DNA from: Carcharhinus amblyrhynchos
Lineage: Eukaryota
DNA: 64,000 nucleotides
NCBI GenBank assembly: GCA_965287045.1
Contig: OZ336882.1
Span: forward strand, 72,912,001 to 72,976,000
Direction of reading: 5' to 3'
Numbering within the stretch: the stretch's first letter is position 1; every line of letters starts with the position of its first letter. The position numbers and the translations under genes are program-made. The notes under the pieces are model-generated. The model was given only the letters and a program-made list of their open reading frames with translations. It was not told the DNA's origin and did no database searches. Positions 23,286 to 54,600 of this stretch are shown one piece after another.

Positions 23286-23358
23286 TTATTTGTTCAGTTA
23301 CAGTAATTAATCACGTGCAACATTATGTCACTAGCAGGGACTAGAAAGTTACATAAAT
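23286..23358 (+). promoter_or_regulatory. Putative proximal promoter of gene 2 (forkhead, TAATTAAT, E-box, CATAAA)
   Basis: TATTTGT 23287, GTAATTAATC 23303-23312, CACGTG 23312-23317, CATAAAT 23352-23358; ungapped 20/27 match to gene 1 6210-6236. Confidence 0.6.
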
Positions 23359-23435
23359 GGGGCTCATTGACACTTGAGAGATCTACTTTGCGTGGAACAT
23401 AAGAATTCGGAGGGAAATCCCCACCTCTTCATGAA

Positions 23436-23505
23436 ATGGTGCACGCCGCAATCCTGCAAATAAAGGACATTTACTATCCTCTGCTTGCGACCTTTGGTGT
23501 TCCAG
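23436..23505 (+). CDS. GPR139-like GPCR gene 2, exon 1 (MVHAAILQIKDIYYPLLATFGVP+G)
   Basis: gaaATGg Kozak context; IYYPLLATFGVP; donor CCAG|gtaagt at 23505/23506, phase 1. Confidence 0.88.
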
Positions 23506-27579: not shown

Positions 27580-28100
27580 CTAAAGTGGGGAATTCTGGTT
27601 CTGGTGGCCGAAAAGAAAAAAAAGCTACTTTGATGAGTGAACTCTTGCGAGGTAAAAGCAACTTAGTCTTCAAAGTGTAATAAACGTTTATTTTAATGAC
27701 TAGATTTATTAAACATTGGAATGTTAGAATCAAAAACATTGCAAATTAAAATTATTCAGATTATACAAACATGCAATTAAGACAAGACAAATTTCTTTTG
27801 GCCGAGAATGCGTCCACGCTCATTTGCTGTGTCGATGAAATCATAAATGTCCCCTTCGGTTGAAGTAAGTTTGCCTTGTCTTAATTGCATGTTTGCATAT
27901 TCTGAATATTGTTACTTTGCAATGGTTTTGATTTTAATATTTCAATGTTGAAATAAAAGTAGTTTTAAATAAAATTTTACTACGCGTTGAAGATTGAGTT
28001 TCGTTTACCTTTGCAAGCGTTTCAATTTTAAATCAAATTTGGTTTTCTTAGAACTTTCTGATATAATCCAGCTACCAAAATAGAATTCTCTACTCCAGTT
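27580..28100. repeat. Long imperfect inverted repeat (foldback/MITE-like)
   Basis: The left arm ...aatcaaaaacattgcaaattaaaattattcagattatacaaacatgcaattaagacaagacaaa pairs with the right arm tttgccttgtcttaattgcatgtttgcatattctgaatattgttactttgcaatggtttttgatt...; loop ~27807-27853. Confidence 0.75.
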
Positions 28101-28914
28101 TAGCAACGGTGCGGGATGTCCTGGAACATAGACGATCCGCTAACTGTATCTTCCAGAACGGGGTGAGTATATTTTGATAAAAAAAACAAAAACATGTTCA
28201 CCTTACATTTCAATCGGGAGGTGCACTATAGATTGTCAAAATTCAGAATATATCTGAACTCTTGTGGGGTCGAAAAGGTAAAACTGGTTGCTGCTGTTCT
28301 GCACTTACAGGGAATGAAAGTGTGACAGTAAAGAGGCGCGCTTACTTCGGGTGGGGGTGGGGTGGGGTGCGGGGTGGGGGCAGGGTGGAAACGACCTGGT
28401 TACGCTCGAAGAGAAACAGAGGCGTTACTGTTCTGAAGTTTTTAAGAAAGGCCGTGGAAAGGAATGCTAAATTAAAGGGGGAAAGTTACACCTCCGACAG
28501 GAGCAATTGGTTTAATTTAGTATTGTCAGAAAACAAAAAAAAAGTTGGGGGAATCAGGAAATAGAGGGAAAATAACCACTTAATTTACTTATAGAACTCG
28601 GGAAATTAATAAAAAGAACTCAAAATTTTGTGGACACCAACAAAGGGTTTAACATCAATAAAACACTTAAAAATCAAGTTATGTTTTCTGTGTTAAAAAA
28701 AGGGCACATTGTCAAAAAACGAAATGCTGTAAACAAGCCAAGTTTGAAACAATCAGAACGTTAAGCCATTCAGTTCTATTCAGGATGAATCTTCGTGTTT
28801 TAAAAAAAATGCAGCAAATGATAGGAATTTTTCATTCAAATCTCAATACAATCGGAAAGGGGAAAATGTTTATTCGAAGTTACACAAAAAAAGGTGGGTG
28901 GCGAAGTTTAAACG

Positions 28915-31135: not shown

Positions 31136-31339
31136 GATAATTAGTGTACTTTTTTTTTACTATTTTTCAAGATGACATTTATCCCTATTGACTATTTCGT
31201 GATAACAGCGCCAACTAATTTAGGGCTATTCAGAAATGGCAGTGACCTCACAGTAGTTTCGTGACATTGTGAGGAGTGGAAATTTAAAATCAGCAAAATA
31301 ATCATAAGAATGAGAATAGTGGTCCAAAAAACAGTGCGG

Positions 31340-32955
31340 ATTTAAACATGAATAGCCGTCTTGTTCCGGACAACTCCTGATAATGCAGCCTGCATTCACT
31401 CGAAATATTGTCCTCTGGAATGCAGGCACTATCTCATTCTTCATCTCCACAAGGCCTGCTGTGTTTTGCTGTTGTCTGAAACGCTCACACAATGTCACTA
31501 AAATGAAATTGCGTCCACTTTATAAATTCAATATTCATGTTTTAAATGAGAAATAATTTTTATTCATATGGTGCTGTTTGTTAAACAGCAGCCCTTGTCA
31601 GGCCTCTCCATAACCTAAGATCGTTTACTCTCAAGTCAGTTTAGTTAGTATTAGTAAACCTTTGGTCCTGGGTTTTACAAGCCGATTCCGCACTTTCTGC
31701 CCCCACCCGCCCCCGTCCACATCATTTGCCGCTCTCGGTCGTTGGGCAAAGACCTCCTGAAGCAACTAAATGGATATTTCTCAGTATCTAAACTTAGTTC
31801 TTACTACTTCTTTCGAATTTCCTATTTCTCCCTTCCTTACCCTATCTGCTGTCACTGATGCTGTAACGTCGGTGGATTTAGAAAGTCGTGGAAATCAATT
31901 TGTGATTAGATGTACAATTACTCCTAACATTAGGATCACAATTAAATAATAAACTTCCTTGAAGGAACGATGAATTCAGAGAAACTATCCAGCCTGGAAG
32001 CCAAGCACCTAAGGTAAATAGTGCAAGGTCTTTGTGTTTCCCACCTCCATCTTCATGGATACAACTAGATTACATACGTTTTCTGAACTCTCTTGTATAT
32101 AAGTGCAAATACTCTTCCAATTACTGCACATATCTCTCCTCTTGCTGCCTAGGTACAATCCAATGCCATACAATGTTGAAGTCCCTCTGTACGCATGACA
32201 ACCATCTCATGAATGATCATCTTGAGGGCAGTTCCTGTATTGACAATTTGTTCCCAATGTAGGTGAGCTTTGTAATTTCTTGCATTGTTCGAAGCACTCC
32301 ATATTGGGGAAACGTTATTGCAAAACCCGGGCTCCTTCTATCATAGCTCGCCAGCATCTTGGCATGTGAGTGAGTTTATATATTTACAAAGCTTTCTTCG
32401 TTTCACAAATATCCCTGAGAATTTGGTTCCCAGATCAGAATCCAACAGTAGAGGCATGCCTGAACGAAGTATTATTTCATTCATTAACCAAAACCATTGT
32501 TTTTGGCTGTAGCATCTTTGCACGGGAATGCTTCAACCTAACATTGAGGCTGCTAAATGATCACCACATAAGAGGTCTTTCCTTACACTTTGTGTAAGGA
32601 CCCTTTGAAATCCCTCTGCTTATTTCTCCATGGCCCTTTAGGTCATGTCGGATTACCCATCTTGACTCTGCAGCGATGACGTGATTCTACTCGGATGTAC
32701 TACTCGCTATATCTCCTCGTTGCTATATATGTGGTCCTTCTCTGTGTGCACTAATCTGTGATATGTCTTCAATAAGTTTTGTTGCATTACTTCAGGGGTT
32801 GTTATTTCGTGTTCCCTTCTCCATACGCCATTTTGACCTCTCTGCCCTCCCCGTTTTCCCATTCCTGTTTCTCTTCTTTTGTGGCCTGTTCCTGAATCTC
32901 TTTCACATCAGTATCTGTGATTTCCTGGCTTGTGCTGGTTTCCTGGACAGGTTTA
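31340..32955 (-). mobile_element. Internally deleted ERV relic, copy 2
   Basis: Colinear with 14030-15630; the minus strand near 32220-32050 reads EMVVMRTEGLQHCMALDCT*AARGEICAVIG/CTYIQESSENV. Confidence 0.75.
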
Positions 32956-34789
32956 TTGGTTTCTCTTTAAGTACCCACTGTCATTTGCAACACGTATTGG
33001 ATTAGGCACAAAACATAACACATTGGAGTTTTCATGTGTGAGCAGGAATTTCAGATAATGAAATCCACATTCCAACTTGATTTCCAGCATTTCGGCACCA
33101 GTGCCACACACCTAACGAATGTGGCATATCTTCGTATCAATGATATTCAAAATCAAAAGAGATTGAAATAAGGCAGGGTGAGAAGGTGGCATTCCACCCA
33201 ATCCATTGTTTGCTTCCCTTCCGAAACCTATTGAAACTTGACCTGGGTCTGTTCTTAAAAATTGAAATGGATCACTAGATTGTGTGAGTGTCCTGAACTC
33301 TTTCTGCAGACCATCTTATGATATTTCGTTCTTTCGCATTCAAGGTTCATCATCATTTTCTGTGTAAATGGACAGTACAATCTGTACATCACAAGTGGTA
33401 GACTTCGGTTACTGGTGGTATTGGTGACTCCCAGCTACTGAGTGCAGTGCTGGGATTAAACTTTGGAAACTCCCCTGATCTGCCTCCAATGCCAGGATGG
33501 TTTCCCCTCGATAAAACAAATCAATGACATTCATAATATTCAAGGGGTGGTGAAAATTATCTTTTGCACCGTTTAAATATACGTTCCCTCTTTTTTTCTT
33601 CATTCTGTTGGAAATAAAGGCAGACATTCCATTTATCTTGCCATTTATCTGCTGAATCAGAATGCTTGTATTTGTGATGTATACAGAAGGACGCCTAAAT
33701 CCTTCTGTGTTGTGATTTTCTGCAGAATGTCTTCAATTAAATAATAATCAGCTTCTTTATTGTTTCAGACTGAAACACAAAAGCTCACAATTTTTTTGCA
33801 TTATATTCCAGCTGCCAAGTTTATCCCATCTGACGTAACGAGTCCATATCTCTCTGTTGACTCCTTGTGTCATCACAATAACTTGCTTTCCCATTTTTTG
33901 TGTCAGCTGCAAACTTGACAAAAAAATCCATTCACTTCCATCTTCCATGTTAGTTTGTCACTTCATTGAGCTGCATGAAAAATAAACTCGTTGAAAGTAA
34001 CATATCTGATTCTCTATCATTCGTCCACCACATATTATCATTACACACAACACTAAATGCGGTGATGCTTGCCATGGATCACACTGCTATTCACCAAACA
34101 CAACGTGTTCGTTTCCCAATGAATCGCACAACTTGTCTTCTCATTTTTTTCTGCTTCATGAATAAGGTTTTACATTTGGATTGCCACTCAATGAGGTTCT
34201 GAATTTATGTTATGGAGCTTAACCAGTTATTCTATACAATTAATATTATGCTTATATTGGTGTATTGACAGTTTACATTATGTCCCAGTTTAAGGATGGT
34301 GGAGTTAAAACTCATGACTTCCTTACCTCTCCCCCTACCTAACACGCCTGGGCTTCAGCTCTCATTCTCGCTGTCTTCATCGCTCTCTTTCGAACTCGGT
34401 TTCTTTTTCTCCCTCGCTTTTACTGCATCTGTTTATGCATACAATGCCAGAAGATAAGGTATTCTCCCTCATTTCACGGAATTTCCCACTGACACATTTC
34501 CAATTCTTTTTGCACTTGTTCTCCCTTCATGCAGTCCTCAGCTGAACCGATGTGAAAAAATCTATATGTTGCCTCACTTACTTCACTCCTAACTTCCTGT
34601 TTCCACTATGCAAATGCATATTGTCACTTGTCAGCACAAGCATGGATATAACGTAAACATTTCTGGACTTGCACTGTTTCGTTATGCGAGGAGTTGGGAA
34701 AGGAGCTGGGAATTGTTCAATCATTTGCAAACCACTTCTGATTTGTTGATGGACAGAAGGTCACTGATGGAGCATTTGAAGATAGTTGG

Positions 34790-35390
34790 TGTAGAAAAAA
34801 TTAGATTCATATAAGCAATTAGGTTGCATAGAAAAGTAAGTCTGTTTTAAACGGACCTACTATAGTAGGGGCTAAAGCTGCGGCAGTAGCTAAAGGGTTA
34901 ATGATTCACTATATACTCACCATTATACCGAAAATCAAGAAACTAGCCGAAGCAGGCAGAGTTAGAAAAAACAGGGCCTAGCAGACACTCAAGGCCTAAA
35001 GGCCAGATAACGGGCCATCTGCCTTTTAGGAGGATAGAAAAATAAACCACCATTCTTCTTCCCTATCTAGTTACGGTAAATCACAAGGGACGGGGACTGT
35101 CGGATGGTTTAGACCAAGGAAACTATAGATAAGTCCTAGGACCATAGATTTAATTAATGGGACAATGATTAAAAGGGTAATAGAGATAGTAAGGATAATA
35201 GGGAGTATTGTAACCTGCTTGCAGAGTTGTTTGTTTCACTATAAAAATAGCGCGGGTTTGTTCAAAAAATCAGAGTTCTCTCGGTGTTGACTGAGGTGTA
35301 CTCTCCGTGGTATCACGACAATAAACTCTCCTGACGCCTGACTCTGAACGTCTCTGCCTGAGTTATTCTGAGCTAGGTGTTTCCTCGACA
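34790..35390 (+). mobile_element. Solo LTR, 601 bp, with 5-bp TSD
   Basis: TGTAGA...TCGACA termini; GTTGG at 34785-34789 and 35391-35395; TATAAAA 35240, AATAAA 35320; empty site agttggtccgtg in units C and D. Confidence 0.9.
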
Positions 35391-38300
35391 GTTGGTCCGT
35401 GAACACTACCTTGAAGAACTTCCACAGTGACGTCCTGGAAATGTAACCACCTAAACCACTTTCATTTGTGTCAGGTATGATTCCTACTAAGAGAAAACTT
35501 GACCTTGATTCCCATTGACACCGGTTTTGTTTGTGTTTCTTCAGCTGATACATGGTCAACCACTCCCTTTCTGACAAGAGAAGTCACCCTCAACTGGCTT
35601 CTTTGTAACGTCACGTTATTGTCTCTCATACAGGGTGGATCAGACACTATCAGAAGTTCATGGCGTCTGATTGACAGCCCTGGTCTATAAAGAAGAGATA
35701 AAGAAAGAGACAGGAGATAAAATAGAATATGACGCCCCTTTAATGTTCCACATCATAAACGATCCATCAGAAACAAAAAGTAATGTTAAAGTCCACTGCT
35801 TCCAATTCCATTGGCTTCCAGTGAATCAGTAAATTGTTTGGAATAATAATTGTCATCCTTTTGGAACCCTCTGTGTCCTGATTTGCCTTCCAGTAATCCT
35901 AAAGCATACAACTTTGTATTTTCTGTGTTTTGTTTGGTAGCAAAGTTGTTAGCACTGAAATCTCACAGCACCAGAGACCCTCGTTTTATTCCTCTCTTGC
36001 GTTAGGTTCTCTCCACGCCTGTGTGGCTTTTCTCCAGGTGCTCTGGTTTCCTCCTAATAGGGATGACATGCTAGTTAGGTGCATTGGCGATGTTTAGTTC
36101 AGCCTCCCTGTCCCTGAGAACGCGCCAGCATCCAGGTGATTTCCACAGCAAGACCATTGCAATGTTAATGTTAGCCTACTCGTGACACAAATAAATAACC
36201 TTAAAACTTTTCAGGCCTTTGCTGTGAGAGAGATTTTCAAATTATTCACAGCATAGCACAGTGGCAGACATCTTTCACTCGATGTACTCCGGAATCAGGG
36301 ATTCAAAGTAACACAGATTCAGACGAATCAATGGAACTTGCTCTACCATTCAAAGATCTCATAATTAATTTGTGCCCAACTCTATAGACATACGTGTTAC
36401 AATTCCCCATTCTCGACCTTAAAAATATATATAGATAAAGCCATCCTTCTGGCTAACTGATGAAACCTCTAACACTCTTAATCATCTCTCTATCGTTCTT
36501 TACATCTGAAGTTTCCGAGATATCTAACACAGATAGCTGTAAGTTGGCACTGCTAAAATGAGCACCCAGTCTGTGCTGTGCATGCATGTGTTAATGCATC
36601 ACACGGTGTGGTCACAGATCCTAGGCTGACTCTAAGATTCCTCAATCAGTTGACCTGCTGCTGTTAGGATACCTGCCCAGAGGATGAACAGAGACAGATG
36701 GAGACTTGTTGAGGAGCTGCATTGCAAAATGTACCGGCAAATTATAATCAGAACACTGCCTCTGGAATGCAAGAGGAGTATTCATAAAAATCTGGTTTTG
36801 TCCATTCCTCGATATCAATAATTTAAATGCCAGAATTCAAAATTATTTCAGTAACCCGGCTGAAATTGTTGTGAAGTTCAGTTTGCAAAGATATAATGGC
36901 TGGAGACAAAATGCATTAACAATTGTGTGTTCCCTATAAAAACTGATATTTTGTGAAAATACCCGGAGGTTTAAAATGCAAAGTACATCCAATGGTCAAG
37001 ATGAAACATTTGTATCTCAATTTCAGACAATAATCTTGAATAGTAACCTGGTTGTATTTGAATGTTGTCTAATTGATTTGAAGCAGGCACTCAGCAACCA
37101 AAAACCTATAAGATTTGAAATTGATGTTACTGATAATGGTGGACGAATCCTATTGTAGGAAAGTTGATCGGTCATGGGAGGTGCAAAAGAGATTGCAAGG
37201 GGGGAGAAGCAAAAAACATTTGGCTGGCAACTGCCATCTTTCAAGCCTTGAGGGAGATAGAGCACACAAATGCCACTTGCCAAGAACAAAGGGTTCTAAG
37301 CTCGACACACCTTGCCAGATTCAGATATCTCTCAAGTGAACAGATATCTAGCCAGTGAAAGGTGCAGAATCATAAATAACTCACAGACAGAAAATTCAAC
37401 CGAAAAGCTTCAGAAGATTCCAAAGGATACCAAACCTGGTTGCATACTTACTGGGAGTGAGAAAACTATTGTTTTGTTGTTAATGAATGGACATTGGTTC
37501 TGTCAAATGAATGGACAACTGGCCTTAATGTGGAGTAACACTAATCAGTGTGGGTTCAATTCCAATATCGGCGAGGTTATTCAAAAATGATGGCCTTCTC
37601 AATCTTGACATTTTCTGGTTGAATCACTATCACAAAGTTGGGAAATATTGTAACAGACATGTTTTGTGGGGTGAAGGGTGGAGGGAGAGGGGGAGGAAGT
37701 GAGTGGAGGGAAGGGATGTGGAAGGAGGAGTAGCGGAAGGAGGGGCAGGGAAGAGGGATGGAAAGGTGTGGAGGGAGGGGAGGGAGAGAGGAGGGGGGCG
37801 GGAGTGGCGGGGTGAGGGAGGGGGAAGGAAGTGTTGAGGGTATGAGGGAGTGAGGGGGAAGTGACGGGGAGAGTAGGGGGATGGAGGGGGTGAGCGAGGG
37901 GGGAGAAGATGGTCGGGGGAGGAAGGAGGTAATGTGTGGGTGAGTGGCTGGTGGTTGGGTTTAAATCGGGGAAGAGGAATGTGGATATGAGTCCACAATC
38001 CGATCATTCACGCTTCTGTATGTCACAATGTAAATTCCCCATAATGTTGCAGTAACGTTCCACTGTGTGAGAATTCTTAGAGAGTACTGGACTGAAATAT
38101 TGAATGCCAGCCTTGCAAAACAGTAAATTGTTGATAATGTATTGGTGAATGTCGCAGTGAACTGTGTTCATACATTTTGAAAGAGAATAATGAAGGCGAT
38201 GCATCCGTAAACTATCTGAAAATGATTTTAAGGAATAATGCGAAGCGTTTGATGTTCCAACATGGCTAACACGTGGTACTGCAAACCAGCAGAGACAGTT

Positions 38301-40363
38301 TAGTAAATACTTCGAATCGAACAAAGACAATTCTGGAAGGGCAGCTTACATAAAAGGTGGCTATCACATTTCTAATTAAATGAAGTTAAAGTGCTGAAGC
38401 AGGTAATGTTGAAATCGGTAATTCTGGGTCACAGACTCCGGGTGAGCATCCGATGACATTGATATAGGTGTCGATTTGAAGCATTGCTTTGAAATAAGCC
38501 AGGTTTCCAAATCAGTCCTTATTGCTGACCACTTCCAGCCCAGCATCCTCCCAGATTTCCTTGTCTGATTCTAGTACCACACTCCACAATTTCCTTCTCG
38601 CTCACATACCGATACAACTCCCTCCTCATTGCCCATTCACCTTAACTTGGCATGGATTGAGAATTGTTGAGCAGACTGAAAACAAAGGGTAGGGAGAAAT
38701 GAACATTTTCGAAGTTACAGGCAGTGATTTCGGGAACCCTCAGGGATCTGGGCTTGGGTCCAGCTATTTAAAAGATGCTTCAATGATTTTGATGAAGGAA
38801 CCAAAAATAACATTGGCAACTTTACTCTCACAAGACTTGTGAGGAATATGAGTGTTGTGAAGGATGCTCAGAGGCAGCAAATTGATTCAGGCAAGTTAAA
38901 TATGCGGGAAAACACGTTACAGATGCCGTACAATGTAAGTAAATGTAATGTAAATAACGTTGGACAGAGAAAAATAATGTTAGAATACTATTTATATCGT
39001 GATAGATGGGAAACGGTCGACAATGAAGGAGACCAAGATGTCGTTGTATACCAGACATTAAGGAAATCATGCAGGCAAGGCAAGCAGATAGGTGGCAATT
39101 GATAGGCTGGCCTTCATTGAAAGAGGACTTTAGTGAAGGAACAAGAATGTCGGGCTGGAGATGTCCAAGGCTTTGGTGAGAACACGACAGAAGTATTGTG
39201 TGCAGTTTTAGCCTCATGATCTGAGAAAGAAGTGGAGCTAATTGACATCGGACTGAATTCAGGGAAAGCGTGTTTCCAGCATGAGATGAGAATGAGTTGA
39301 ATGTACATGCATTAACTGGAAATTAGAATAATTTGAAAATGCAAAAATATTTGACATGTTTGGAAAGATTGGATGTTGGGATGCCTTTTCGATGGCAGAG
39401 TGGGAAGGGGCTCAATAATGAGATGTCACGACTTTTGGATATTGGTGGGCCATTAACGATTGAGGTGAGGAGAAACGTCTTCACTCAGAGGGTGATGAGC
39501 CTGTGGAATTCTCTACTACAGATGATGGTGGTGGTATATAAACTGAATATATTAAATAGCAACATGTAGGCAGACCAGGATAAGTTCAGGAGGTTGAAAC
39601 CAGATAGGGAGGGATTTTCGTCTGAGGAGACGTTGAACAGCTTGTGCCTGTTTAAAAGAATGAGAGACGACCTTATTGATGCATATAATACTCATCGACC
39701 TTCTTGAGACATATAAGGGGCTTGACAGGATGGATGCTGAAACAGGGATTCTCCTTGTGGGACGGTCTTGGACTAGAGGGCATTATCTCAGCGGAAGGGG
39801 TCGTCCGTTTAAGACAAAAATGAGGTGTAATTTCTTCTTCCAGAGAACCCTGAATCCATGGAAAACTTAGATGCGTGGGCGATCGTGGCTGTGTCGTTAC
39901 GTATATCCACAGCTGAAAAAAGGTTCATTGTAAGAGGGCTTCAGTACAGAAAAAAAATGACATCTGATTGGAGCTGTATATGGCTTTGTTGAAACCACAA
40001 CATTGTTAATGTTTAGTCGCTGCTATTAGCATCGCTATAAGATGAGCAACAGAAATGTTAAACTGACTTCAAAACAATCATGTTAGAGTTGCATAACTAT
40101 CAGCAAAAGCAGCGTTGGGTTGTACCAGTCACATTTTTATTGAGTTAGCACCAAGAACAGAATCATTTGATGCCCATGCTGACACTTCTAAGCATTTTAT
40201 ATAAGCTATTTCTTTTTCAAAAACATCAAACCCAGAACCCGACACACTTCAGCTCCAGGGATTTTGGTGCGTCAAGTGTGCACTTCCTCTGAGATTCCCA
40301 TACATTCCGCTTGGTGACTTCAAAGGGGGTCTCGACCCGGGTGCAATGAGGAAAAAAAAACCT

Positions 40364-40436
40364 TTATTTGTTCAGTTACAGTAATTAATCACGTGCAACA
40401 TTATGTCACTAGCAGAGACTAGATTGTTACATAAAT
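40364..40436 (+). promoter_or_regulatory. Putative proximal promoter of gene 3
   Basis: TTATTTGTTCAGTTACAGTAATTAATC 40364-40390, CACGTG, CATAAAT 40430-40436. Confidence 0.6.
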
Positions 40437-40513
40437 GGGGCTCATTGATCCTTGAGAGATCTACTTTGCGTGGAACATAAGAATTCGGAGGGAAATTCCC
40501 GCCTCTTCATGAA

Positions 40514-40583
40514 ATGGTGCGCGCCGCAATCCTGCAAATAAAGGACATTTACTATCCTCTGCTTGCGACCTTTGGTGTTCCAG
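40514..40583 (+). CDS. GPR139-like GPCR gene 3, exon 1 (MVRAAILQIKDIYYPLLATFGVP+G)
   Basis: gaaATGg; donor CCAG|gtaagt at 40583/40584. Confidence 0.88.
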
Positions 40584-42177
40584 GTAAGTCCGAGTATATC
40601 CTGTCGATGAATAGGTATGAGACTATCTGAGAGCTTGAAATTTATTTCGCTGGCCCAGAATTGTCTTCCTATGTGTCCAGTAGGCAGCTCTTCTGTCTTC
40701 CCAATAATAACTGTAAAACCTTATATGCAATGAATGATTATTCGAGCTACAGTCATTTCCATCCCACCTCTTGGAAAGATAGTTTGTCGATCATTTGTTA
40801 AAAGAACAACAAATGCTTCAATGTGCATCCGGAGTTTCCTCCATGTGGCTTAACTCGCCACTGAAGATCTCGTCATGTTATTGTGGGATGTACTCAGGCT
40901 CTTACAGTTCAATTTCGAGTACACCATCGGCTGTATCTAGCGCGCAGGCAGCCTTTGAGGTGACTGTCGATGTTAAAGGTGCATATTAAGGCGGTAACGA
41001 CTGATATGGACTCAGGCTTCTTTGCCGAGCTGCTATGTTACTCTACAATGAAACGATGCAACATGAAAACAATTCCTGGCCATCTCAATGGGCCAGAGGG
41101 ATTTCATGAGCATCAGCAGGCATGAGCAATATAAAACGTAGTTTTGGAGTAATTTCCACAATTTGACACACGTAGGTATAATGACAGTAAGTGAAAAAAA
41201 AACTTAAATATCGTCATTCGCTTCCGGTTGAGCCACAGAATAGATGATGTGGCATCCATGTCGATCAGATTGTTTTTGCAATGATTCGTACGCAACATGA
41301 GGAAATCCCTCTTTTTTTTGCTTTGATGCCAACTGCCAGAAATTAATATCTACTTCAGCCTTTTAGCTCTTACCAGTGATGGCACAAATTATTCCGGGCC
41401 GTTATTTGCTGGAAAAAAGTGACGAGGAATCACATTACAGCCCAGTTGAGGTTTCCCCATAGGCCTTGGCTAGTGATTAATCCCCGCTCCATTATTCAGC
41501 TTTACGGATATGTGCAAGAAAAAAAAAATCTTCATGGATAGGACAGGAATGCTGAAATCAAGCAGTGAGCGTTGGAGATAAGCAACACGCCAGGTGGCAC
41601 ATGGTGCTCAGGAGAACAGGGGAGGACAGTCACCAAGCATAAGTGAGTATGGGACAGGACCATGGTGACGCTAAATGTGGAACTACATGCACGCTAAACA
41701 AGTGATATATTGAGAAAAGAAAGAATTAGCGTTTATGCTTCTATTGGCAGCCCACAGAATTGAAAGGTTACCTCTGCCTGCCTTTCCACATCGGCTGCCT
41801 GACTTGATTTCAATCATTTCTGCACTGCGCTCACTGTGAAGGAAGAATCTCCCGCTTGTGTGTCGCTGTTGAATATTCCCCTTCAATTGGTGCTTAAAAC
41901 TTATAATACTCCTCCCGCACCACACCCCGACTTTCTTCCACGTCCCCCATGCCTTTCCTCTGCTCCTTTGTTCCTTTATGTTCTCCAACGCAGTCGATTC
42001 TTTTTTCTTCTGGAAAGATTATTTAATTTGGTATTGATTTTTATCAGTTTATTCCCTCATTCCCATTAAAGTGCTCTGTTTACATGGCACATGCACACAA
42101 TCTGCTAAGTAATCAGAGAGACAAACCTTTCTTTTAAATTGACTGAAGTGTTCCTATTTTCCTTCCTCTTCTTGCAG

Positions 42178-43106
42178 CGAACATTATGACCATCGTGATC
42201 CTCTCCAGAGGAAATTGTGGTCTCTCCAAATGTATCTCTGTCTACATGATGGCTATGGCTGTAGCGGATCTGCTGGTCATGGTGATTAGTGTACTGCTGT
42301 GTCACATCTTCGGTTATCAGTTTCCGAAATCCTTTTTGTCCTACACTGCTGTTTGTAAGTTCATTCTGTACAGTGGTTATGTTAATTTGGATATGTCAGC
42401 GTGGTTCACAGTTTCATTTACATTTGACCGCTTTGTTTCCATCTGTTGTCCGAACTTTAAAGAGAAATATTGCACGAAGAAAACTGCAACTACCCTTATA
42501 GTAACGGTCTTCGCCTTGACCTATTTAAAAGGTGTCCCTATGTTCTTTTCGTACGAAGCTGAACGAATCATTGACAATGTGCACTGGGGCTGTCGGACAA
42601 CGCAGGCCGTTTATACATTGCCCGCATGGTCTGTGTACAGCTGGATGCAGTCGAGCTCAGTTGTGCTGTTGCCTTTTGCTCTCATGATGCTGTTTAATTC
42701 TTTAACCGTCAGACGTATTTTGTTGGCAAATCGTGTACGCAGAAGCCTCCGGAGTAGTGGAAATGAGAGTCAGAATGATCCAGAAGTGAAGAGCCGAAGA
42801 CAATCCATCCTTCTACTCTTCACGATATCAGGCAGCTACATAATTTTGTGGTTAACAGCTGTTGGGAGTTTTGCAGCCACCAGAATGTCGAGCAGCGTTT
42901 TCAATCAAGGAGATTACTCCAATCCGGGGTATATCGCCACTGAGACTGGATGTCTGCTCATGTACCTGAGTTCCTGTTCGAACACATGCATATATGCAGC
43001 GACCCAAAGGAAATTCAGAGGAGAACTAAAGAATGTGCTGAAATTTCCTTGGACATATTTTTCCAAATTGGTGAATGATAAGAAAGAACTTAAGACAAAC
43101 CAATGA
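42178..43106 (+). CDS. GPR139-like GPCR gene 3, exon 2 (spliced 332 aa, intact)
   Basis: Acceptor cttgcag|CG at 42177/42178; 70+929 nt = 333 codons; full 7TM with FDRF, NTCIY and helix 8; AATAAA ~43220. Confidence 0.92.
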
Positions 43107-45993
43107 TTTCTCTCCAAACTGGAGCATTATTTTTCACACTTTTTTTCCCTTGTGCAAGAATGCTGCTCTTCTTAGAATCTGACTATGAGAGATGTTGTTA
43201 AATGATATAAATGATGTTGAATAAAAGTTGATGAAAACAAACCCTTGAAGTGATCACCAAAGCACAACACCATCAGAAATAATGTGGTGCAACTGGAGAA
43301 TGGATGTATGAACTGATTAAATACGATAGTGTAGTCAATGTTCATTCTTACACCTTGCCTGTTAATAGAATACTATCGTTGCTCTATCAACGCTTGTTCC
43401 GATGAGGAACCGTTGCTAAGATTGTGTGTGTGGCGACTTATGGCCGAAACGTTTTCTCTTACAATGGAGAGATAAAGATCAGCATCAAAGGAGCCTGAAT
43501 ATTTGTTTGATAGATGCACGTGAGAGCATCACATTGCACAAAGACCTAGGGAGAGACTTGTTGCTGTCGAAAGGGTAAGGTACTTAGGCAAAATGCGTGA
43601 GAAATGCAGCGCTTCAACGAGAGATGACGGGCCAGCATGATATTACATGGATGGCAGTTGGAGTTGGCGGGGGGTGGGAGGAGGGGGGCGGGGGGATGAA
43701 ATTGGCCTTAGGATGTGGTGAATAGGTAGAAATGTGGCACACTTGCATTTATTCACCGAGCTAAGGAATATAAGAGCAGGGAGCTTACGATGGAGCTGAA
43801 TAAAGCAAACTTCAGGGCACAGTTCGTGTTCTGTCTGCATTTCTGGTCATCCCACCATATAAGGGTTGTGTACGAGAGAGGGCGTGAAGGAGATTTACGA
43901 TGTTGCCTGACCAAGGGAATTACAACTACGAAGAGAAACTCAGCTTGGCTTGGTTATTTTCCCTTGAACAGTGAGCGCTGAGGCGGGGGTTGGGGGTGAG
44001 GAATAGGGGAGGGGTAACGATCGGAGTGTACAGATTTTGAAGTAGATGGGTAGGCACTTTTCAAATTAGTAAAGCTGTCAATGACCAGAGGAGATAGGTT
44101 CATATATTTAAATATAAGGTTCTGGCAGGAGATTTAGAGTGAATTTGAGTAAAATGCTCTTTCTACTAAGAGGATGATGGAGAGTCGGAAATCATAGACT
44201 GAAATTGTTGTAGTATTGGGGAACATCACGGTATTAAAAACACACACACATTTTGAGGAGCATTTAAAATGCCATAATATATCAGACTAAAACTCTACGA
44301 GATCTGAGGTTTGAGTGTGAGTAAAGAGCACCGACTGCCAAAGCACTTCATTCAAATCAGAATGTCCGAACCAGAGGTAATGTGTTGGTGAAAATCATGA
44401 GGAGCCGCATGCACTTGGGACAATGATAAGCAAATGTCAAAAGAGCCGGAAAGGAATGGAAAAATGCTAATACAAGTACTGGGCTAATTTTCTAGAATCC
44501 TAGAATGAAGATCCATTTACTTTAGTTCACATTCTGAATATTGTTACTTTGCAGTTCTTTTGATTTTAATATTTCAATGTTGAAATTAAAATAGTTTTAA
44601 ATAAAATTATATTACGCGTTTAAGATTGAGTTTCCTTTACCTATGCAAGCATTTCTATTTTTAAACAAATTTGCTTTTTGATTTAGAAGTTTCTGATGTA
44701 ATCCAGCTCCCAAAATAGAATTCCCTACTTCAGTTTAGCAACAGTACGGGATGTCCTTGGAATATCGACGATCCGCTGACTGTATCTTCCAGAACGGGTG
44801 AGGATATTTTGATTTTAAAAAAACAAAGACATGTTCACCTTACATTTCAATCAGGAGATGCACAATGGATTGCCAATATTCAGGATATATTCGAACTCTT
44901 GTGGGGTCGAAAAGGTAAAATTGATTGCTGTTGTTCTGCACTTACAGGGAATGAAAGTGTTACAGTAAAGAGGCGCGCTTAATTCGGGCGGAGGCGGGGG
45001 TGGCGGGGGGGCGCGGCGGGGGGAAGTGCGGGGTGGGGGCAGGATGGAAACGATCTGGTTACGCTGCTAAGGCAGTAAACTGGCCGTTTGGGAGAGAAAC
45101 AGAGGCATTACTGTTGCTGAAGATTTTAAGAAAGGCCGTGGAGAAGGAATGTTAAATTTGGGGGGAACGTTACACCTTCGACAGAGCAATTGGTTTAATT
45201 TAGTATTCTCAGAAAACGTAAAAAAAAGTTGGGGGTGGTGGTGGTGGTCAGGAAATAGAGGGAAAATAACCACTTTATTTACTTACAGAACTCGGGAAAT
45301 TAATAAAAATAACTTAAAATTTTGTAGACACCAACAAAGGCTTTAACATCAATAAAACACTTAAAAATCAAATTATGTTTTCTGTGTTAAAATAGGGGCA
45401 CATTGTCAAAAAAAAAATGCTGTAAACAAGCCAAGTTTGAAACAACCAGAACGTTAAGCCATTCAGTTCTATTCAGGATGAATCTTCGTGTTTTAAAAAT
45501 TTGCAGCAAATGCGAGGAATTGTTCATTCAAATGGAAATACAATCGGAAAGGGCAAAATGTTTATTCGAAGTTACACAAAAGAAAGTGGATGGCGAAATT
45601 TAAACACAAGAACATAAGAATTAAGAGTTCGTGTAGACCATCCGGCCCCTCGTGCATGCTCCACCTTCAGCAAGACCATGGGTGATTTTTTCGAGGGCTC
45701 GGCTCCACTTACCAGCCCAGTAACCATGGCCCTTCATTCCATTACTATTCAAAAAATTATCTCTCCTTGCCGTAAAAAAAAGTGAATGAGGTAGCCGCAA
45801 CTGCTTCACTGGGCTGGAAATTCCACAGATTCATAACACTTTGTGTGAAGAAGTTACACGTCAATTCAGTCCTAAATCTGTTCCCCCTTATTTTGAGGCC
45901 ATACCCCCAGTTCTAATTTCATCTGCACTGGAAATAATTTCCCTGTTTCTACCATATCTGATCCCTTCATAATCCCATATCTTTCTATAAGAT

Positions 45994-46276
45994 TTAAGGA
46001 CACAGATTTAAGGTGCGGGGAGGGAGGTTCAGAAGTGATGTTAGGGGTAAGTTTTTCACTCAGAGGGTCGTGAGTGAATGGAATCGGCTGCCGTCAGTGG
46101 TGGTGGAGGCGAACTCGCTGGGGTCTTTTAAAAGACTTCTGGATGAGTACATGGGGTTTAATGAGATTGAGGGTTATAGATAGGTCTGTAGGTTGGTAGG
46201 TGTTGATGTGATCGGCACAACTCGTGGGCCGAAGGGCCTGTTTGTGCTGTAGTGTTCTATGTTCTATGTTCTATGT
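45994..46276 (+). mobile_element. Young 5'-truncated CR1/HER1-type LINE end with 6-bp TSD
   Basis: TAAGAT at 45988-45993 and 46277-46282; (GTTCTAT)n tail; absent at the matching unit A site (~29290). Confidence 0.9.
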
Positions 46277-48324
46277 TAAGATCTCCCCTGATTATACTGA
46301 GTCTAGTCCCAAACTACTCAATCTCTCCTCATAAGCCAAACATTTCAACTTCGAAATCAACCAAGTGAATCACCTCTGAATCCCCTCCAGTGCCAGTAAA
46401 TTCTTTCTCAGGTAAGGAGACCAAAACTGTACACAGTACTTCAGGTGTTATCTCACCAGAACCTTATATAGTTGCAACATAACCTCACTTTTTTTAAAAC
46501 TTCATCCCTCCAGCAATGAAAGATAACATATCATTTGTCTTCTTAATGACTTGCTGCACCTTCAAAACAACTCCTTGCGATTCCTGCACAAGGATACGCA
46601 GGTCGCTCTGCACAGCAACATGCTGCAATGTTTTACCATTTAATAATAATCAGTGGTGCTGTGTTTTCTGTTCTTACCAAAATGGATGACATCACATTTC
46701 GCAATATTGCTCTCCATCTACCAGATTCTTGCCTATTCATTAAACTATTATACCCCTTTGCAGACTTTCAGCGTCCTCTGCACATTTTGCTCTGCCACTC
46801 ATCTGAGTGTCATCTGCAATTTTCCTAGCACACTACACCTGGTCCCCAACTCCAAATCATCTGTGTAAAGCGGAAACAATTGTAGTCCCGTCACTGATCC
46901 CTGAGGCACATCACTCGCCACCGAGTGACAATCGGATAAACAGCCATTTACCCCCAGTCATTGCTGACTGTTAGTTAACCAATCTTCTATCCGTGCTCAT
47001 ACATTACCCACAACACGGTGCACTATTATCTGATGCAAAAGTCTTTGGTGCAGCAACTTGTCAAATGCCTTCTGGAAATCCAGAAACATCACATCCACAG
47101 GTTCCCCATTGTCCACTGCATGTGTAACGTTGTCAAAGAATTCCACCAAATTAGTCAAACATGACCCTTCCTTCATGAACCCGTGCTATGCCTTACTAAT
47201 GGAACAATTTACACCCAGATGTTCCGCTACTTTTTCCCTGGTGATAGGTTCAAACATTTTCCCTACTATAGAATTTAAGCTAACCAGCCTATGATTACCT
47301 GCCGTTTGTCTATCTTCTTTTTTAACAATGGCGTCACATATGCTATACTTTGACACAAAATGCTGCTCAATTGTTCAGCCATTTTCTCATTTTCAGTTAG
47401 TACATCTCCCTTCTCATCTACTAAAGGATCAATGATTATCTTAGGCACCCTTTTTCGTATTATATATTAACTGAAATTTTTGCTCATTGTTTTTATACTC
47501 TAAGCTAATTTACTCTCATATTCCATCTTATCTTTCTTTCTAACTTTTTCATGGCATTATGGGCCCTTAAATATTTCCGAATCCTCTAGTTTCCCACGAA
47601 TCTTTGCCACTCTGTATATATTTTCTTTCAATTCAACACCGTCCTTTCTTTGCTTAGATGTCCATGGCTAATTATATCTTTTTTCTGCAGTCGTTCCTTA
47701 TCACTGGTACATACCTTTGTTGTGTACTGTGAGAAATCGCTTTGAAAGTCCTCCACTGTTCCTGAATTGTCCCACCATAGTTTTTTGCTCCCAGTCTACC
47801 TAGTCAATCCCTCCTTTATTCCATTGTATTCTATTCTGTCTTACCCACAGCCACGGGTATTGGATTTTACCTTCTCACACTCCATCTGCATTTTAAATTC
47901 AAGAACACTGTGATTGCTTCTTCCGACGGGATCCCTAACTGTAAGATCGATAATTATTCCTGTCTCATTATAGAGGACCATATCTACGATAGTTTGCTCC
48001 CTCATACGTTCTATTACAAACTGTTCAAGGAAGCTATCACAGATACATTCTGTGAACTCCTTCTCAAGGCTGCCTTAACCGACTTGGAGTGAACATTGAC
48101 ATATAGATTAAAAACCCGATGATAATTGCTGTACGTTTTTTTTTACCATTTTTCAAGATTACATTTATCCCTGTTCACTATTTCGTGATAACAATGCCAA
48201 CTAATTTAGGGCTATTCAGAAATGGCAGTGACCTCACAGTAGTTTCGCGACATTGTGAGGAGTGGAAAATTAAAATCAGCAATATAATCATAAGAATGAG
48301 ATAAGTGCTCCGAAAAACAGTGCG

Positions 48325-49960
48325 GATTTAAACATGAATAGCCGTCTTGTTCCGGACAACTGCAGATCAAGCAACCTACATTCACTAGAAATATTGTCCT
48401 CTGGAATGCAGGCACTATCTCATGGTTCATCCCAACAAGGCCTGCTGTGTTTTCCTGTTGTCTGAAACGTTCACACAATGTCACTAAAATGAAATTGCGT
48501 CGACCTTACAAATTCAATATTCATGTTTTAAATGAGAAATAATTTTTATTCATATGTTGCTGTTTGTTCAACAACAGCCCTTGTCAGCCCTCTCCATAAC
48601 CTAAGATCGTTTACTCTCAAGTCAGTTTAGTTAGTGTTAGTAAACCTTTGGTCCTGTGTTTTACAAGCCTATTCCACACTTTCTGCCCCCACCCGCCCCC
48701 GCCCACATCATTTGCCGCTCTCGGTCGTTGGGCAAAGACCTACTGAAGCAACTAAATGGATATTTCTAAGTACCTAAACTTAGTTCTTACTAATTATTTC
48801 GAATTTCCTATTTCTCCCTTCCTTACCCTATCTGCTGTCACTGATGCTGTCACGTCGGTGGATTTAGAAAGTCGTGCAAATCAATTTGTGATTAGATGTA
48901 CAATTACTCCAAACATTAGGATCACAATTAAATAATAAAATTCCTTGAAGGAACGATGAATTCAGAGAGACTATCCAGCCTGGAAGCCAAGTACCTCAGG
49001 TAAATTGTGCAAGGTCTTTGTGTTTCCCACCTCCATGTTCATGTATACGACTGGATTGCTTACGTTTTCTGAACTGTCTTGTATATGAGTGCAAATAAAC
49101 ATCCAATTACTGCACGTGTCCATCCTCTTGCTGCCTAGATTCAATCCAATGCCATACATTGTTGAAGTCCGCTGTACGCATGACAACCATCTCATGAATG
49201 ATCATCTTGAGGGCAGTTCCTGTATTGACAATTTGTTCCCAATGTAGCTCAGCTTTGTAATTTCTTGCATTGTTCGATGCACTCCATATTGGGGAAACGT
49301 TATGCCAAAACCAGGGCTCCTTCTATCAGAGCTCGCCAGCATCTTGGCATGTGAGTCAGTTTATGTATTTACAAAGCTTTCTCCGCTTAACAAATATCCC
49401 TGAGAAGTTGGTTCTCAAATCAGAATCCAACTGTAGAGGCATGCCTGAATGAAGTATTATTTCATTTATTAATCAAAACCATTGTTTTTGGCTGTAGCAT
49501 CTTTGCACGGGAATGCTTCAACCCAACATGGAGATTGATAAATGATCACCAGATGAGAGGTCTTTCCTTGCACTTCGCGCAAGGGCCCAAGAAAATCCAT
49601 CTGCTTATTTCTCCATGGCCTTTTAGGTCATGTTGGATTACCCATCTTGACTCTGCAGCGATGACGTGATTCTACTAGGATGTACTACGGATACCTCTGA
49701 CCATCTCGCTATATCTCCTCGTTGTTATCTTTGTGGTCCTTCTCTGTGTGCACTAATCTGTGATGTGTCTCCAATAAGTTTTGCTGTATCACTTCTGGGG
49801 CTGTTATTTAGTGTTTCCTTCTCCATACACCATTTTGACCTCTCTTCCCTCCCCGTTTTCCCATTCCTGTTTCGCTTCCTCTGTGGCCTGTTCCTGTATC
49901 TCTTTCACATGAATATCTGTGATTCCCTGGCTTGTGCTGGTTTCCTGGACAGGTTTATTG
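48325..49960 (-). mobile_element. Internally deleted ERV relic, copy 3
   Basis: Unit B paralog of 31340-32955; ISD region near 49070-49200 (GLQQCMALD). Confidence 0.75.
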
Positions 49961-51640
49961 GATTCTCTTTAAGCACCCATTGTCATTTGCAACACGTATT
50001 GGTTTAGGCGCAAAATATAACACATTGGAGTGTTCACGTGTCAGCAGAAATTTCAGACAATGGAATCCACATTCCAACTTGATTTCCAGCATTTCGGTAC
50101 AAGTGCCACCCACCGATCGAATGTGGCATCCCTTCATATCAATGAAATTCAAAATCAAAGGAGATTGAAATAAGGCAGGGTGAGAAGGTGGCATTCCACC
50201 CAATCCGTTGTTTGCTTCCCTTGCGAAACCTATTGAAATTTGACCTGGGTCTGTTTCCAAAAATTCAAATGGTTCACGACATTGTGTGAGGGTTATGAAC
50301 TATTTCTGCAGACCATCTTATGACACTTCATTCTTTCGCATTCAAGTTTCATCATCATTTTCTGAGTAAATGGACAGTACAATCCGTACATCACAAGTGG
50401 TAGACTTCGGTTATTGGTGGCATTGGTGACTCCCAGCTACTGAGTGCAGTGCTGGGATTAAACTATGCAAACTCCTCTGAGCTGCCTCCAATGCCAGTAT
50501 GATTTCCCCTCGATAAAACAAATGAAAGGCATTCATAATATTCAAGGGGTTGTGTGAATTATCTGTTGCACAGTTTTAATATGCCTTCCCTCTTTTTTTC
50601 TTCATTCTGTTGGAAATAAAGGCAGACATTCCGTTTATCTTCCCAATTATCTGCTGAATCTGCATGCTTGTATTTGTGATGTATGCACAAGGACGCCTAA
50701 ATCCTTCTGTGTTGTGATTTTCTGCAGAATGTCTTCAATTAAATAATAATCAGCTTATTTATTGTTTCCAACTGAAGCACAAATGCTCACAATTTTTTGC
50801 ATAATATTCCATCTGCCAACTTTACCCCATCTGACGCAAACGACTCCATACGTCTCTGTTGACACTTGTTTCATCACAATAACTTGCTTTCCCATTTTTT
50901 GTGTCATCTGCAAACTTGACAAAAAATCCATTCACTTCCATCTTCCATGTTCGTTTGTCCCTTCACTGAACTGCATGAAAAATAGGCTTGTTGAAAGTAA
51001 CATACCTGATTCTCTATCATTCGTCCACCACATATTGGCATTGCACACCGCACTAAATGCTGTGATGCTTGGCTTGGATCACACTGCTATTCACCAACAC
51101 AACGTGTTTGTTTCCCAATGGATCACACAACTTGTCTTCTCATTTTTTTCTGCTTCATGAATAAGGTTTTACATTTGGATTGCCACTCAATGAGGTTCTG
51201 AATTTATGTTATGGAGCTTAACTAGTTATTCTATAAAATTAATATTATGCTTACATTGGTGTATTGACAGTACATTATGTCCCAGTTTAAGGATGGTGGA
51301 GTAAAAACTCATGAATTGCTTACCTCTCCCCCTACCTAACACGCCTGGGCTTCAGCTCTCATTCCCGCTGTCTTCATCGCTCTCTTTCTAACTCGGCTTC
51401 TTTTTCTCCCTCGCTTTTACTGCATCTGTTTTATTCATACTACGCCAGAAGATAAAGTATTCTCCCTCATTTCACTGAATTCCCCACTGACACATTTCCA
51501 TTCTTCTTGCACTTGTTCTCCCTTCATACAGTCCTCAGCGTAACCTACGTGGGAAAATATATATGTTGCCTCTCTTACTTCACTCCTAACTTCCTGTTTC
51601 CACTGCGATGCAAATACATATTGTCACTTGTCAGCGCAAG

Positions 51641-54600
51641 CATGGACATAACGTACACATTTCTGTACTTGTACTGCTTCATTATGCGAGGAGTTGGGAG
51701 AGGAGCTGGGAATTGTGCAATCATTTGCAAACCACTTCTGATGTGTTGATGGACAGAAGGTCACTGATGAAGCAATTGAAGACAGTTGGTCCGTGAACCC
51801 TGAAGAACTTCCACAGCGATTTCCTGGAAATGTAACCACCTAAACCACTTTCATTTGTGTCAGGTACGATTCCTACTTGTAGAAAACCTACCTTGATTCC
51901 CATTGACACCAGTTTTGTTTGTGTTTCTTCAGCCGATACATGGTCAACCATTCCCTTTCTGACAAGAGAAGTCACCCTCACCTGGCTTCTTTGTAACGTC
52001 ACGTTATTGTCTCTCATACAGGGTGGATCAGACACTATCAGAAATTCATGGCGTCTGATTGACAGCCCTGGTCAAGAAAGAAGAGATGAAGAAAGAGGCA
52101 GGAGGTAAAATAGAATATGACGTCCCTTCAATGTCCCACATCATAAACGATCCATCAGAAACCAAAAGTAATGTTAAGTTCCACTGCTTCCAATTCCAAA
52201 GGCTTCCAGTGAACCAGTAAATTGTTTGAAATAATAATTGTGATCCTTTTGGAACCCTCTGTGCCCTGATTTCCCTTCCTGTAATCCCAAAGCATCCAAC
52301 GTTGTATGTTCTATGTTTTTTTGGTAGCAAAGTTGTTAGCACTGAAATCTCACAGCGCCAGAGACCCTCGTTTTATTCCTCTCTTGAGTCAGGTTCTCTC
52401 CACACCTGTATGGCTTTCCTCCAGGTGCTCTAGTTTCCTCCCAATAGGAATGACATGCTGGTTAGGTGCATTGGCGATGTTAAGTTCAGCCTCCCTGTAC
52501 CTGAACACACGGCAGGGTGATTTCCACAGCAACACCATTGCAATGTTAATGTTAGCCTACTCGTGACACGAATAAATAACCTTAAAACTTTTCAGGCCTT
52601 TGCTGTGACAGAGATTTGCAAATTATTCACAGCATAGCACAGTGGCAGAGATCTTTCACTCAATTGTACTCCGGCATCAGGGATTCAAAGAAACATAGAT
52701 TTAGACGAATCAATCGAGTTTGCTTTTACCATTCAAAGATCTCATAATTAATTTGTGCCCAACTCTATAGACATATGTATTACAATTCCGCGTTCTCGAC
52801 CTTAAAAAAATATATACAGATAAAGCCATCCTTTTGGCTAACTGATGAAACCTCTAACAATTTTAACCATCTCTCTATAGTTCTTTACATCTGAAGTTTC
52901 CGAGATATCTAACGCAGATAGTTTTAAGTTGGCATTGCTAAAATGAGCACCCAGTCTGTGCTGTGCGTGCATGTGTTAATGCATCACACGGTGTGGTCAC
53001 AGATCCTAGGTTGACTCTAAGATTCCTCAATCAGTTGACCTGCTGCTGTTAGGATACCTGCCCAGAGGATGAGCAGAGACAGATGGAGACTTGTTGTTGA
53101 GCTGCACTGCAAAATGTAGCGGCAAATTATAATCAGAAGTCTGTCTCTGGAATGCAAGAGGAGTATTCTTAAAAATCTGGTTTTGTCCATTCCTCGGTAT
53201 CAATAATTTAAACGCCAGAATTCAAAATTATTTCAGTAACTCGGCTCAAATTGTGGTGAAGTTCAGTTTGTGAAGATATAAGGGTTGGAGACAAAATGCA
53301 TTAAAAATTGTGTGTTCCCGATATAAAAGCTGATATTTTGTGAAAATACTCGGAGTTTTGAAATGCAAAGTACATCCGATGGTCAAGACGAAACATATGT
53401 ATCTCCATGTCAGACAATAATCTTGAATACTAACCTGTTTGTATTTGAATGTTGTCTAATTGATTTAAATCAGGCACTCTGCTTCCAAAAACCTGTAAGA
53501 TTTGATATTGATGTTATTGATAATGGTGGACGAATCCTATTGTCGGAAAGTTGATCAGTCATTGTAGGTGCAAAAGAGATTGCAAGGGAGGGTGGGGTGG
53601 GGGGGGGGGGCGGAAGATTTGGCTGGCAACTGCCATCTTTCAAGCCTTGAGGGAGTTCGAGTACAAATGCCACTTGTCAAGAACAAGGGATCTCAGCTCG
53701 ACACACATTGCCAGCTTCAGATATCTCTCAAGTGAACACATAATCTTACCAGTGAAACGTGCAGAAACATAAATAACTCACAGACAGAAAATTCAACCGA
53801 AAAACTTCAGAAGATTCCAAAGGATACCAAGCCTGGTTGCATACTTACTGGGAGTGAGAAAACTATTGTTTTGTTGTTAACGAATGGACATTGGTTCTCT
53901 GAGATGAATGGACAACTGTTCTTAATGTGGAGTAACACTAATTAGTGTGGGTTCAATTCCAATATCGGCGAGGTTATTCAACAATGATGGCCTTCTCAAT
54001 CTTGACATTTTCTGGTAGAGTCACTACCACACAGTTGGGAAATATTTTTTAGACATGTTTTGTGGGGTGAAGGGCGGAGCGAGAGGGGGAGGGAGTGAGT
54101 GGAGGGAAGGGGTGTGGAAGGAGGGAGGAGCGGAGGGAGGGGCACGGAAGAGGGATGGAAAGGTGTGGTGAGAGGGGAGGGGGAGAGGAGGAGGACGGGA
54201 GTGGCGGGGTGAGGGAGGGGGAAGGAAGTGTTGACGGTATGAGGGAGTGAGGGGGAAGTGACGGGGAGAGTAGGGGGATGGAGGGGGTGAGCGAGGGGGG
54301 AGAAGATGGTCGGGGAGGATCGAGATAATGTGTGGGTGAGTGGCTGGTGGTTGGCTTTAAATCGGGGAAGAGGAAAGTGGAAATGAGTCCATAATCCGAT
54401 CATTCACGCTTCCCTATGTCACAATGTAAATTCCCCATAATGTTCCAGTAACGTTCCAGTGTGTGAGAATTCTTAGAGAGTACTGGACTGAACTACTGTA
54501 ATGCCAGTCTTGCAAAACAGAAAATTGTTGATAATGTATTGGTGAATGTCGCAGTGAACTGTGTTCATACATTTTGAAAGAGAATAAGGAAGGCGATGCA

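Follow-up and report, generated by a model that had tools for sequence, protein, structure and literature searches.

In the primate red/green opsins and in RHD/RHCE, tandem gene copies with converted introns carry a peak of coding divergence at their function-determining sites, as described in PMC3924837. An array of receptor genes in the shark Carcharhinus amblyrhynchos likewise consists of tandem copies with converted introns and a coding peak at what may be function-determining sites. In the opsins and in RHD/RHCE the functional effect has been measured. The shark array, in which genes have been gained and lost, comprises 11 copies, and since its flanks are still 4–15% divergent, conversion in it is occasional.

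Human GPR139 was the best PDB match of the shark family's profile (7VUG and 9M42, E = 1.7e-17, with only two sequences at E ≤ 1e-12; a PDB profile search at 1e-22 gave no match). GPR139 residues F109 and N271 are required for activation (PMC5430874), V76A and, in ECL1, N93D are listed as gain-of-function single mutants (PMC6367278), and GPR139 is described as highly conserved across vertebrates (PMC12208981), whereas the shark family exists in hundreds of copies. For class A pockets in general, PMC3033908 mentions a 30-position list of Surgand et al. Because identity to GPR139 is only about 20%, the shark genes form, by this measure, a sister family and are not GPR139 orthologues. A one-to-one GPR139 orthologue was ruled out by that identity and by the at least 257 paralogous places.

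The OR, TAAR and V1R/V2R families and the molluscan/nematode Srw/FMRFamide-receptor-like expansions share with the shark family large tandem clusters, pseudogenes and hypervariable pocket columns. FMRFamide-receptor-like clusters with Srw matches also occur among the feature neighbours of the shark genes, which we treat as a lead only; by Pfam scan, the shark family is not OR, TAAR or VR. The catshark is described as having small OR, TAAR and ORA repertoires, and sharks as having very few such genes (PMC11979771), and according to the whale shark paper, cartilaginous fishes have comparatively few GPCRs (PMC8455134).

Eleven copies of a class A receptor gene in two types

In the window, that is the whole stretch of 64,000 nucleotides analysed, the + strand carries four class A GPCR genes of two exons each (genes 1–4). 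Genes 2–4 sit inside a tandem segmental duplication, and 3 of the 11 close copies fall within the window (Table 1). The genes belong to the class A (rhodopsin-like) GPCRs: the 7tm_1 match reached 78 bits against a gathering score of 30.5, and the seven-helix fold has D2.50, C3.25, DR3.50, W6.48 and N7.49/Y7.53, with W4.50 and P7.50 absent. The predicted structure (pLDDT 70.8) has helices at 16–48 and 57–90, and the top Foldseek matches of the model were all class A receptors.

Table 1. Positions of the receptor genes and of their type-specific features in the window
Feature	Position	Strand	Remark
Tandem segmental duplication	18645..64000	.	unit about 16.5–17 kb, 87–92% identity
Gene 1 exon 2	10349..11271	+	distant family member, another subfamily
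Gene 2 exon 1	23436..23505	+	
Gene 2 exon 2 (L010)	25133..26028	+	private changes and 1-bp frameshift near 26001
Gene 2 segment, top of TM2/ECL1/top of TM3 (type A, ancestral-like)	25231..25335	+	as in other-shark orthologue-clade proteins
Gene 3 exon 1	40514..40583	+	ATG, 23 codons and 1 base, GT donor
Gene 3 exon 2 (L001)	42178..43106	+	intact, TM1 end to stop; 7tm_1 E 1e-21
Gene 3 segment, top of TM2/ECL1/top of TM3 (type B, derived)	42276..42380	+	exon-2 codons 34–68; divergence peak
A3.40, type B stem change at connector position	42399..42401	+	V in type A
Y6.44, type B stem change, also in gene 2	42837..42839	+	F in 96/104 homologues
ECL3–TM7 cluster of type-linked changes, the weaker of two	42891..42953	+	codons 239–259
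Gene 4 exon 1	56955..57024	+	
Gene 4 exon 2 remnant (type A)	58763..59207	+	pseudogene; ends at codon ~149 at deletion junction

The deletion that truncated gene 4 to a pseudogene removed about 8.6 kb of the unit, and its junction lies at an ATTGCC microhomology (59202–59207, compared with 51179 and 42617–42622). Gene 1 represents a second local subfamily, whose 7 copies (78–100% identical) are interleaved with the 11-copy clade (C13:72.88–73.33 Mb). The window also holds a LINE-type reverse transcriptase fragment (RVT_1, E 2e-23) at 16903–18036, and older antisense reverse transcriptase copies lie near 28911–30179 and 46315–47165, within the duplicated units.

A DNA search with the tract gave at least 20 matches: the 11 copies, all within 350 kb, and then at most 76% identity. 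Gene 2, gene 4 and L006–L009 form type A; gene 3 (L001) and L002–L004 form type B. L005, an inverted copy on the minus strand (C13:73283347–73284270), is intermediate, with TTT at codon 37, S38, ancestral codons 40–48 and SGF at 66–68; it is derived at codons 38, 51 and 66–67. It is either a natural half-way receptor or a mosaic. Both types occur in contigs under three organism codes, the contigs being evidence of presence only.

The closest proteins of other sharks, 68–77% identical, come from Scyliorhinus (two species), Heterodontus, Rhincodon, Carcharodon, Pristiophorus and one more. In a protein tree made by a quick method, these 7 proteins group beside the 11-copy clade, and the type A pattern is found in all of them: 7/7 have H at 48, N2.65, F3.33, V3.40, F6.44, Y242, Y243 and Y7.39, and 6/7 have N2.57, Y2.61 and L2.62. 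V3.40 is also present in 100 of 104 homologues. Since all the orthologue-clade proteins show the type A pattern, the protein comparison shows type A to be ancestral and type B derived. The type B changes N2.57S, L2.62Q/H, N2.65G, I3.31S, T3.32G, V3.40A, F6.44Y and Y242F affect residues that are conserved across those sharks; L001 and L002 additionally have Y2.61C, F3.33Y and Y7.39C, the last of which, C7.39 in gene 3 and L002, belongs to the ECL3–TM7 cluster.

The two types differ in the state of their genes. All four type B copies are intact in exons and splice sites, whereas only 2 of the 6 type A copies are without an obvious lesion. Gene 2 looks damaged, judging by its private changes A2.47D, R140W (a CpG transition) and T147R and by a frameshift that alters and shortens the C-terminus. 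L008 carries W6.48R (codon 225) in an open frame. The frame of L009 is broken by two stops, and no exon 1 lies within 4 kb of it. Among the type B copies, L004 has M7.42K and Y7.43N (codons 262–263) in an open frame.

The divergence peak between genes 2 and 3

We compared gene 2 exon 2 (from 25133) with gene 3 exon 2 (from 42178) codon by codon. The initial annotation had reported that replacements pile up in one 35-residue stretch, and 14 of the 35 residues in codons 34–68 do differ; its total of 36 replacements is reached once codon 288 is counted (35 in 287 codons). The peak is real. Replacements cluster more than chance would allow (p = 0.00095 for the best 35-residue window in 20,000 permutations), and the segment differs at 25/105 bases, a threefold excess over the mean of 0.082 for non-coding parts of its duplicated unit (maximum 0.20 per 105-nt bin, in a 5.3-kb unit alignment). 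For codons 34–56 (42276–42344), the 19 nucleotide differences, 11 replaced codons and 2 silent-only codons were found as reported, but the silent changes inside replaced codons had been overlooked. In NG86 estimates for gene 2 versus gene 3, the segment has pS 0.285 and pN 0.225 (downstream, 0.088 and 0.039), a pN/pS of 0.8; the contrast of 11 replaced versus 2 silent therefore overstates the case.

The generic numbers that had been assigned, anchored on D31 = 2.50, C60 = 3.25, R85 = 3.50, W225 = 6.48 and Y273 = 7.53, are correct. As the class A pocket we used a set of 34 positions assumed to line it. Of the 35 gene 2/gene 3 replacements, 10 fall in this set where chance predicts 4.1 (p = 0.003); within the segment it is 7 of the 14, where chance predicts 4.0 (p = 0.03). 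Half of the segment's changes thus lie at these pocket positions, the other half being at 2.56, 2.59, 2.62, 2.67, 3.31 and two ECL1 positions. On the two main stems of the clade alone, 5 of 12 changes fall in the set versus 3.4 expected (p = 0.20), and 19 of 25 stem sites are extracellular (p = 0.001).

Several of the residues cited as paralog differences do not belong to the contrast between the types. W140, after the ECL2 Cys, is a gene-2-private CGG>TGG change, and all covering contigs in 4/4 runs read C. Position 6.51 (T/A) is no type marker, since gene 2 and two type B copies have T. The three-way difference MTF/SGY/IAF at 3.31–3.33 exists, but M3.31 is private to gene 2, and IAF is common to the gene 4 pseudogene (cut at codon ~149) and L006. 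In TM5–ICL3, noted as nearly identical, TM5 has 1 silent change in 30 sites versus about 2.5 expected, which is unremarkable, and ICL3 has 4 replacements.

In the alignment with GPR139, position 68 corresponds to F109, 259 to N271, 34 to V76 and 42 to D84. By analogy with other class A receptors, we infer that the changed residues 2.57, 2.60/2.61, 2.65, 3.32, 3.33, 7.39, 3.40 and 6.44 face the pocket or the connector. Because 3.40 and 6.44, which we take to be P-I-F connector positions, are among them, the activation threshold may have shifted too. GPR139 has F at 3.33 and W6.48, as does type A. The shark receptors have C3.25 and an ECL2 WGC, whereas the aligned GPR139 row is without Cys at 3.25; N271 of GPR139 is replaced by Y/C259, and R244 (a numbering we assume) by A/T. 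Among the residues for L-Trp/L-Phe activation (F3.33, H5.42/43, W6.48 and N7.38/39), the F (in type A) and the W appear to be kept, H would correspond to Q158 and N to Y/C259. Type B would likely have a ligand preference different from that of type A.

Selection, recombination and the origin of type B

Codon models were fitted with our own GY94 code to 9 of the 11 copies (287 codons), leaving out L009 (internal stops) and gene 4 (truncated), and NEB and a single tree were used despite recombination. The one-ratio omega was 0.42 and the segment-wide omega 0.48; over all branches, omega was lower in the extracellular half (0.36) than in the intracellular half (0.50). No site class with omega > 1 was found among the 9 copies (M1a = M2a, M7 = M8, 2dL about 0), site models having low power with 9 sequences and a total length of 0.74. 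Ancestral reconstruction on the same copies assigned 22 replacements and 6 silent changes (22 N:6 S) to the two stems versus 89:87 elsewhere (Fisher p = 0.007), and 13 of the 22 stem replacements fall within 12% of the codons (p = 2e-7). Within the segment, the stems have 13 N:3 S and the terminal branches 7 N:12 S, which shows that the segment changes lie on internal branches and that its terminal branches are under purifying selection.

On the B stem, omega was about 4 versus 0.37 (p = 0.0015 against one ratio). The branch-site test was applied to 15 branches, and the B stem alone fell below 0.05 (p = 0.022); with correction for the number of branches, this significance is lost. The size of the excess depends on the neutral reference: the 13 segment replacements compare with 5.7 expected at the downstream-flank neutral rate (p = 0.006; 0.046 after 8 windows) and with 8.1 at the segment's own silent rate (p = 0.07), and the excess over neutrality is 5.9-fold by the gene-wide silent rate (p 6e-7), 2.3-fold by the downstream flank and 1.6-fold by the segment's silent rate. 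Silent changes are somewhat denser in the segment (0.49 vs 0.30 per codon, p = 0.08). An omega above 1 on the B stem is therefore suggestive rather than firm. Of the diversifying selection first proposed, the pocket-related divergence stands (enrichment p = 0.003), but the site models (M7/M8) are null and the signal is episodic, on the type B stem, and modest in statistical terms.

PHI rejects a single history of the clade (p = 0.001), and the tree of the upstream intron disagrees with that of the coding sequence. In this intron, L001/L002 group with three A copies (L007, L008 and gene 2), and L003/L004 group with two others (L006 and gene 4), whereas B and A form separate groups at the start of the exon, in TM7 and in the flank downstream. 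Of the fixed A/B differences, 12 lie in the segment's 100-nt bin; other coding bins have 0–2 each, the upstream stretch as a whole has 2, and downstream bins have up to 7. These patterns show that recombination shuffled and homogenised the flanks and mid-gene between copies, while the segment remained type-specific. In a GENECONV-like longest-run test, none of 36 pairs was significant after Bonferroni (best L001–L005, 0.11), and the gene 2–gene 3 pair was outside the best 10.

In our reading of these results, to which we assign a probability of roughly 0.55, the pocket was remodelled in a single episode; a derived receptor type arose from it and has since been maintained in spite of recombination. 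A single shark orphan-receptor gene would have been tandemly amplified to 11 copies, and in the type B lineage, which includes gene 3, point replacements at the top of TM2, in ECL1 and at the top of TM3 would have become fixed in a burst, likely driven by a short episode of positive selection. Such a burst would alter ligand preference or activation threshold. As at exon 5 of the primate red/green opsins, selection may have driven the changes and may now resist conversion there. Both constraint after the burst, in the terminal branches, and an ancestral state kept by one type, type A, matching the orthologue clade, were found.

The main rival is local relaxation, under which the B lineage lost its ancestral ligand and the pocket drifted, the peak standing out only against the remainder of the gene, which constraint or conversion keeps uniform. 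This would fit a B-stem omega indistinguishable from 1 (p = 0.097 for the whole exon, 0.054 for the segment), the segment's pairwise pN/pS of 0.8, its raised silent density and the half of the TM2 changes that lie off pocket positions. Drift is expected to go on, yet the segment's terminal branches have more silent changes than replacements; the B stem has 7 N:0 S in codons 37–48, where 1.1 replacements would be expected (p = 0.003, corrected for 24 windows), the four B copies are all intact, and B-type contigs are almost constant under three organism codes. We consider relaxation possible, if rather improbable. Continuous diversifying selection on the pocket sites of every copy does describe the C41 sister cluster (2dL = 125; 22/25 flagged sites extracellular), and pocket positions lead the family-wide variable columns. 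In this clade it is unlikely and largely refuted: M2a and M8 collapse onto their nulls in the 9 copies, the segment is conserved within types, and of the apparent copy-specific residues, W140 and M3.31 are private to gene 2 and IAF recurs in the gene 4 pseudogene and L006.

The initial annotation had also offered a short conversion tract from another paralog. That the B segment came in this way from a more distant family member is very unlikely, although recombination is present in the clade and the B residues I2.56, H/Q2.62 and L2.60 are common in distant homologues. Among the matches listed, the tract search for a donor locus found nothing above 76% identity beyond the 11 clade copies. A distant donor would also have introduced silent differences, yet hardly any are fixed along the tract. 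From the type B ancestor, L005 differs in codons 37–48 by 7 non-synonymous and 0 synonymous changes, and its intermediate state fits stepwise change. Under the remodelling episode, the A/B pair makes a natural experiment: the proteins are about 85% identical, the ancestral state is known, about 25 residues are candidates and L005 is an intermediate, so the pair is a good entry for ligand finding. The evolutionary mechanism is already known, being a textbook pattern; the huge family is the notable part and merits its own study.

A large GPR139-like receptor family in sharks

Among the homologues listed (at least 120 of 1,071 at E ≤ 1e-30), the source was a shark or ray wherever it was named, and most carry the NCBI label 'probable G-protein coupled receptor 139'. 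The genome was searched twice at the protein level, with 128 and 129 scored places from 3,420 and 3,423 first-look candidates; since the scored places share no coordinates, the genome has at least 257 family loci, most without internal stops. They form dense clusters on contigs C13, C36, C39, C40, C41, C52 and others. If most candidates are genes, the family rivals the largest mammalian OR repertoires. Across 104 homologues, variability is highest in columns such as 3.33, 6.52, 5.46, 3.32, 5.39, 6.51, 4.60 and 7.39, and median entropy is 1.68 in pocket columns vs 0.85 in other TM columns (p = 0.0002).

In the C41 sister cluster (L051–L090, C41:0.24–4.2 Mb; 40 of 48 listed hits used, 38 distinct, aligned with MAFFT), M2a was strongly preferred over M1a, with 12% of sites at omega about 3.4. 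Its extracellular flagged sites (p = 8e-6 for the excess) include 42, 43 and 51, homologous to the clade segment, and the selected sites are mainly 2.61–2.62, ECL1, 3.28–3.30, ECL2, 5.36, 5.43, ECL3 and 7.34–7.36. Recombination in the cluster (PHI p = 0.001) tends to inflate tests of this kind, but 4/4 blocks with their own trees remain significant. In the cluster at C13:80–81 Mb (14 of 15 sequences, one with a stop dropped), the signal of positive selection was not significant (p = 0.12), and at C13:79.6 Mb the sequences (7 distinct of 8) were too alike, so that M0 alone was fitted.

Like a chemoreceptor repertoire, the family is large, clustered and variable, with positively selected pocket sites (significant in 1 of the 2 other clusters tested). 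Tentatively, the segment may represent a recent specificity switch in an unrecognised shark and ray repertoire of hundreds to about three thousand GPR139-like GPCRs with positively selected pockets, serving as a main chemosensory (or immune-sensing) system. If true, such a repertoire would exist in animals thought poor in such receptors. A literature search for GPR139/GPR142 or orphan GPCRs in cartilaginous fishes found no description, and 'GPR139' is absent from the main text of the catshark sensory paper (PMC11979771); subscription papers and supplements (e.g. bioRxiv 10.1101/2025.06.08.657570) may list the family. A very large, pocket-variable shark GPCR family thus apparently has gone undescribed.

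The subfamily at C13:80–81 Mb (L022–L030, L091–L098) is without the ECL2 cysteine, WGV or WGA replacing WGC, so the TM3–ECL2 disulfide is likely absent there. Three copies in the same region (L030, L093, L096) carry C3.25R in open frames.
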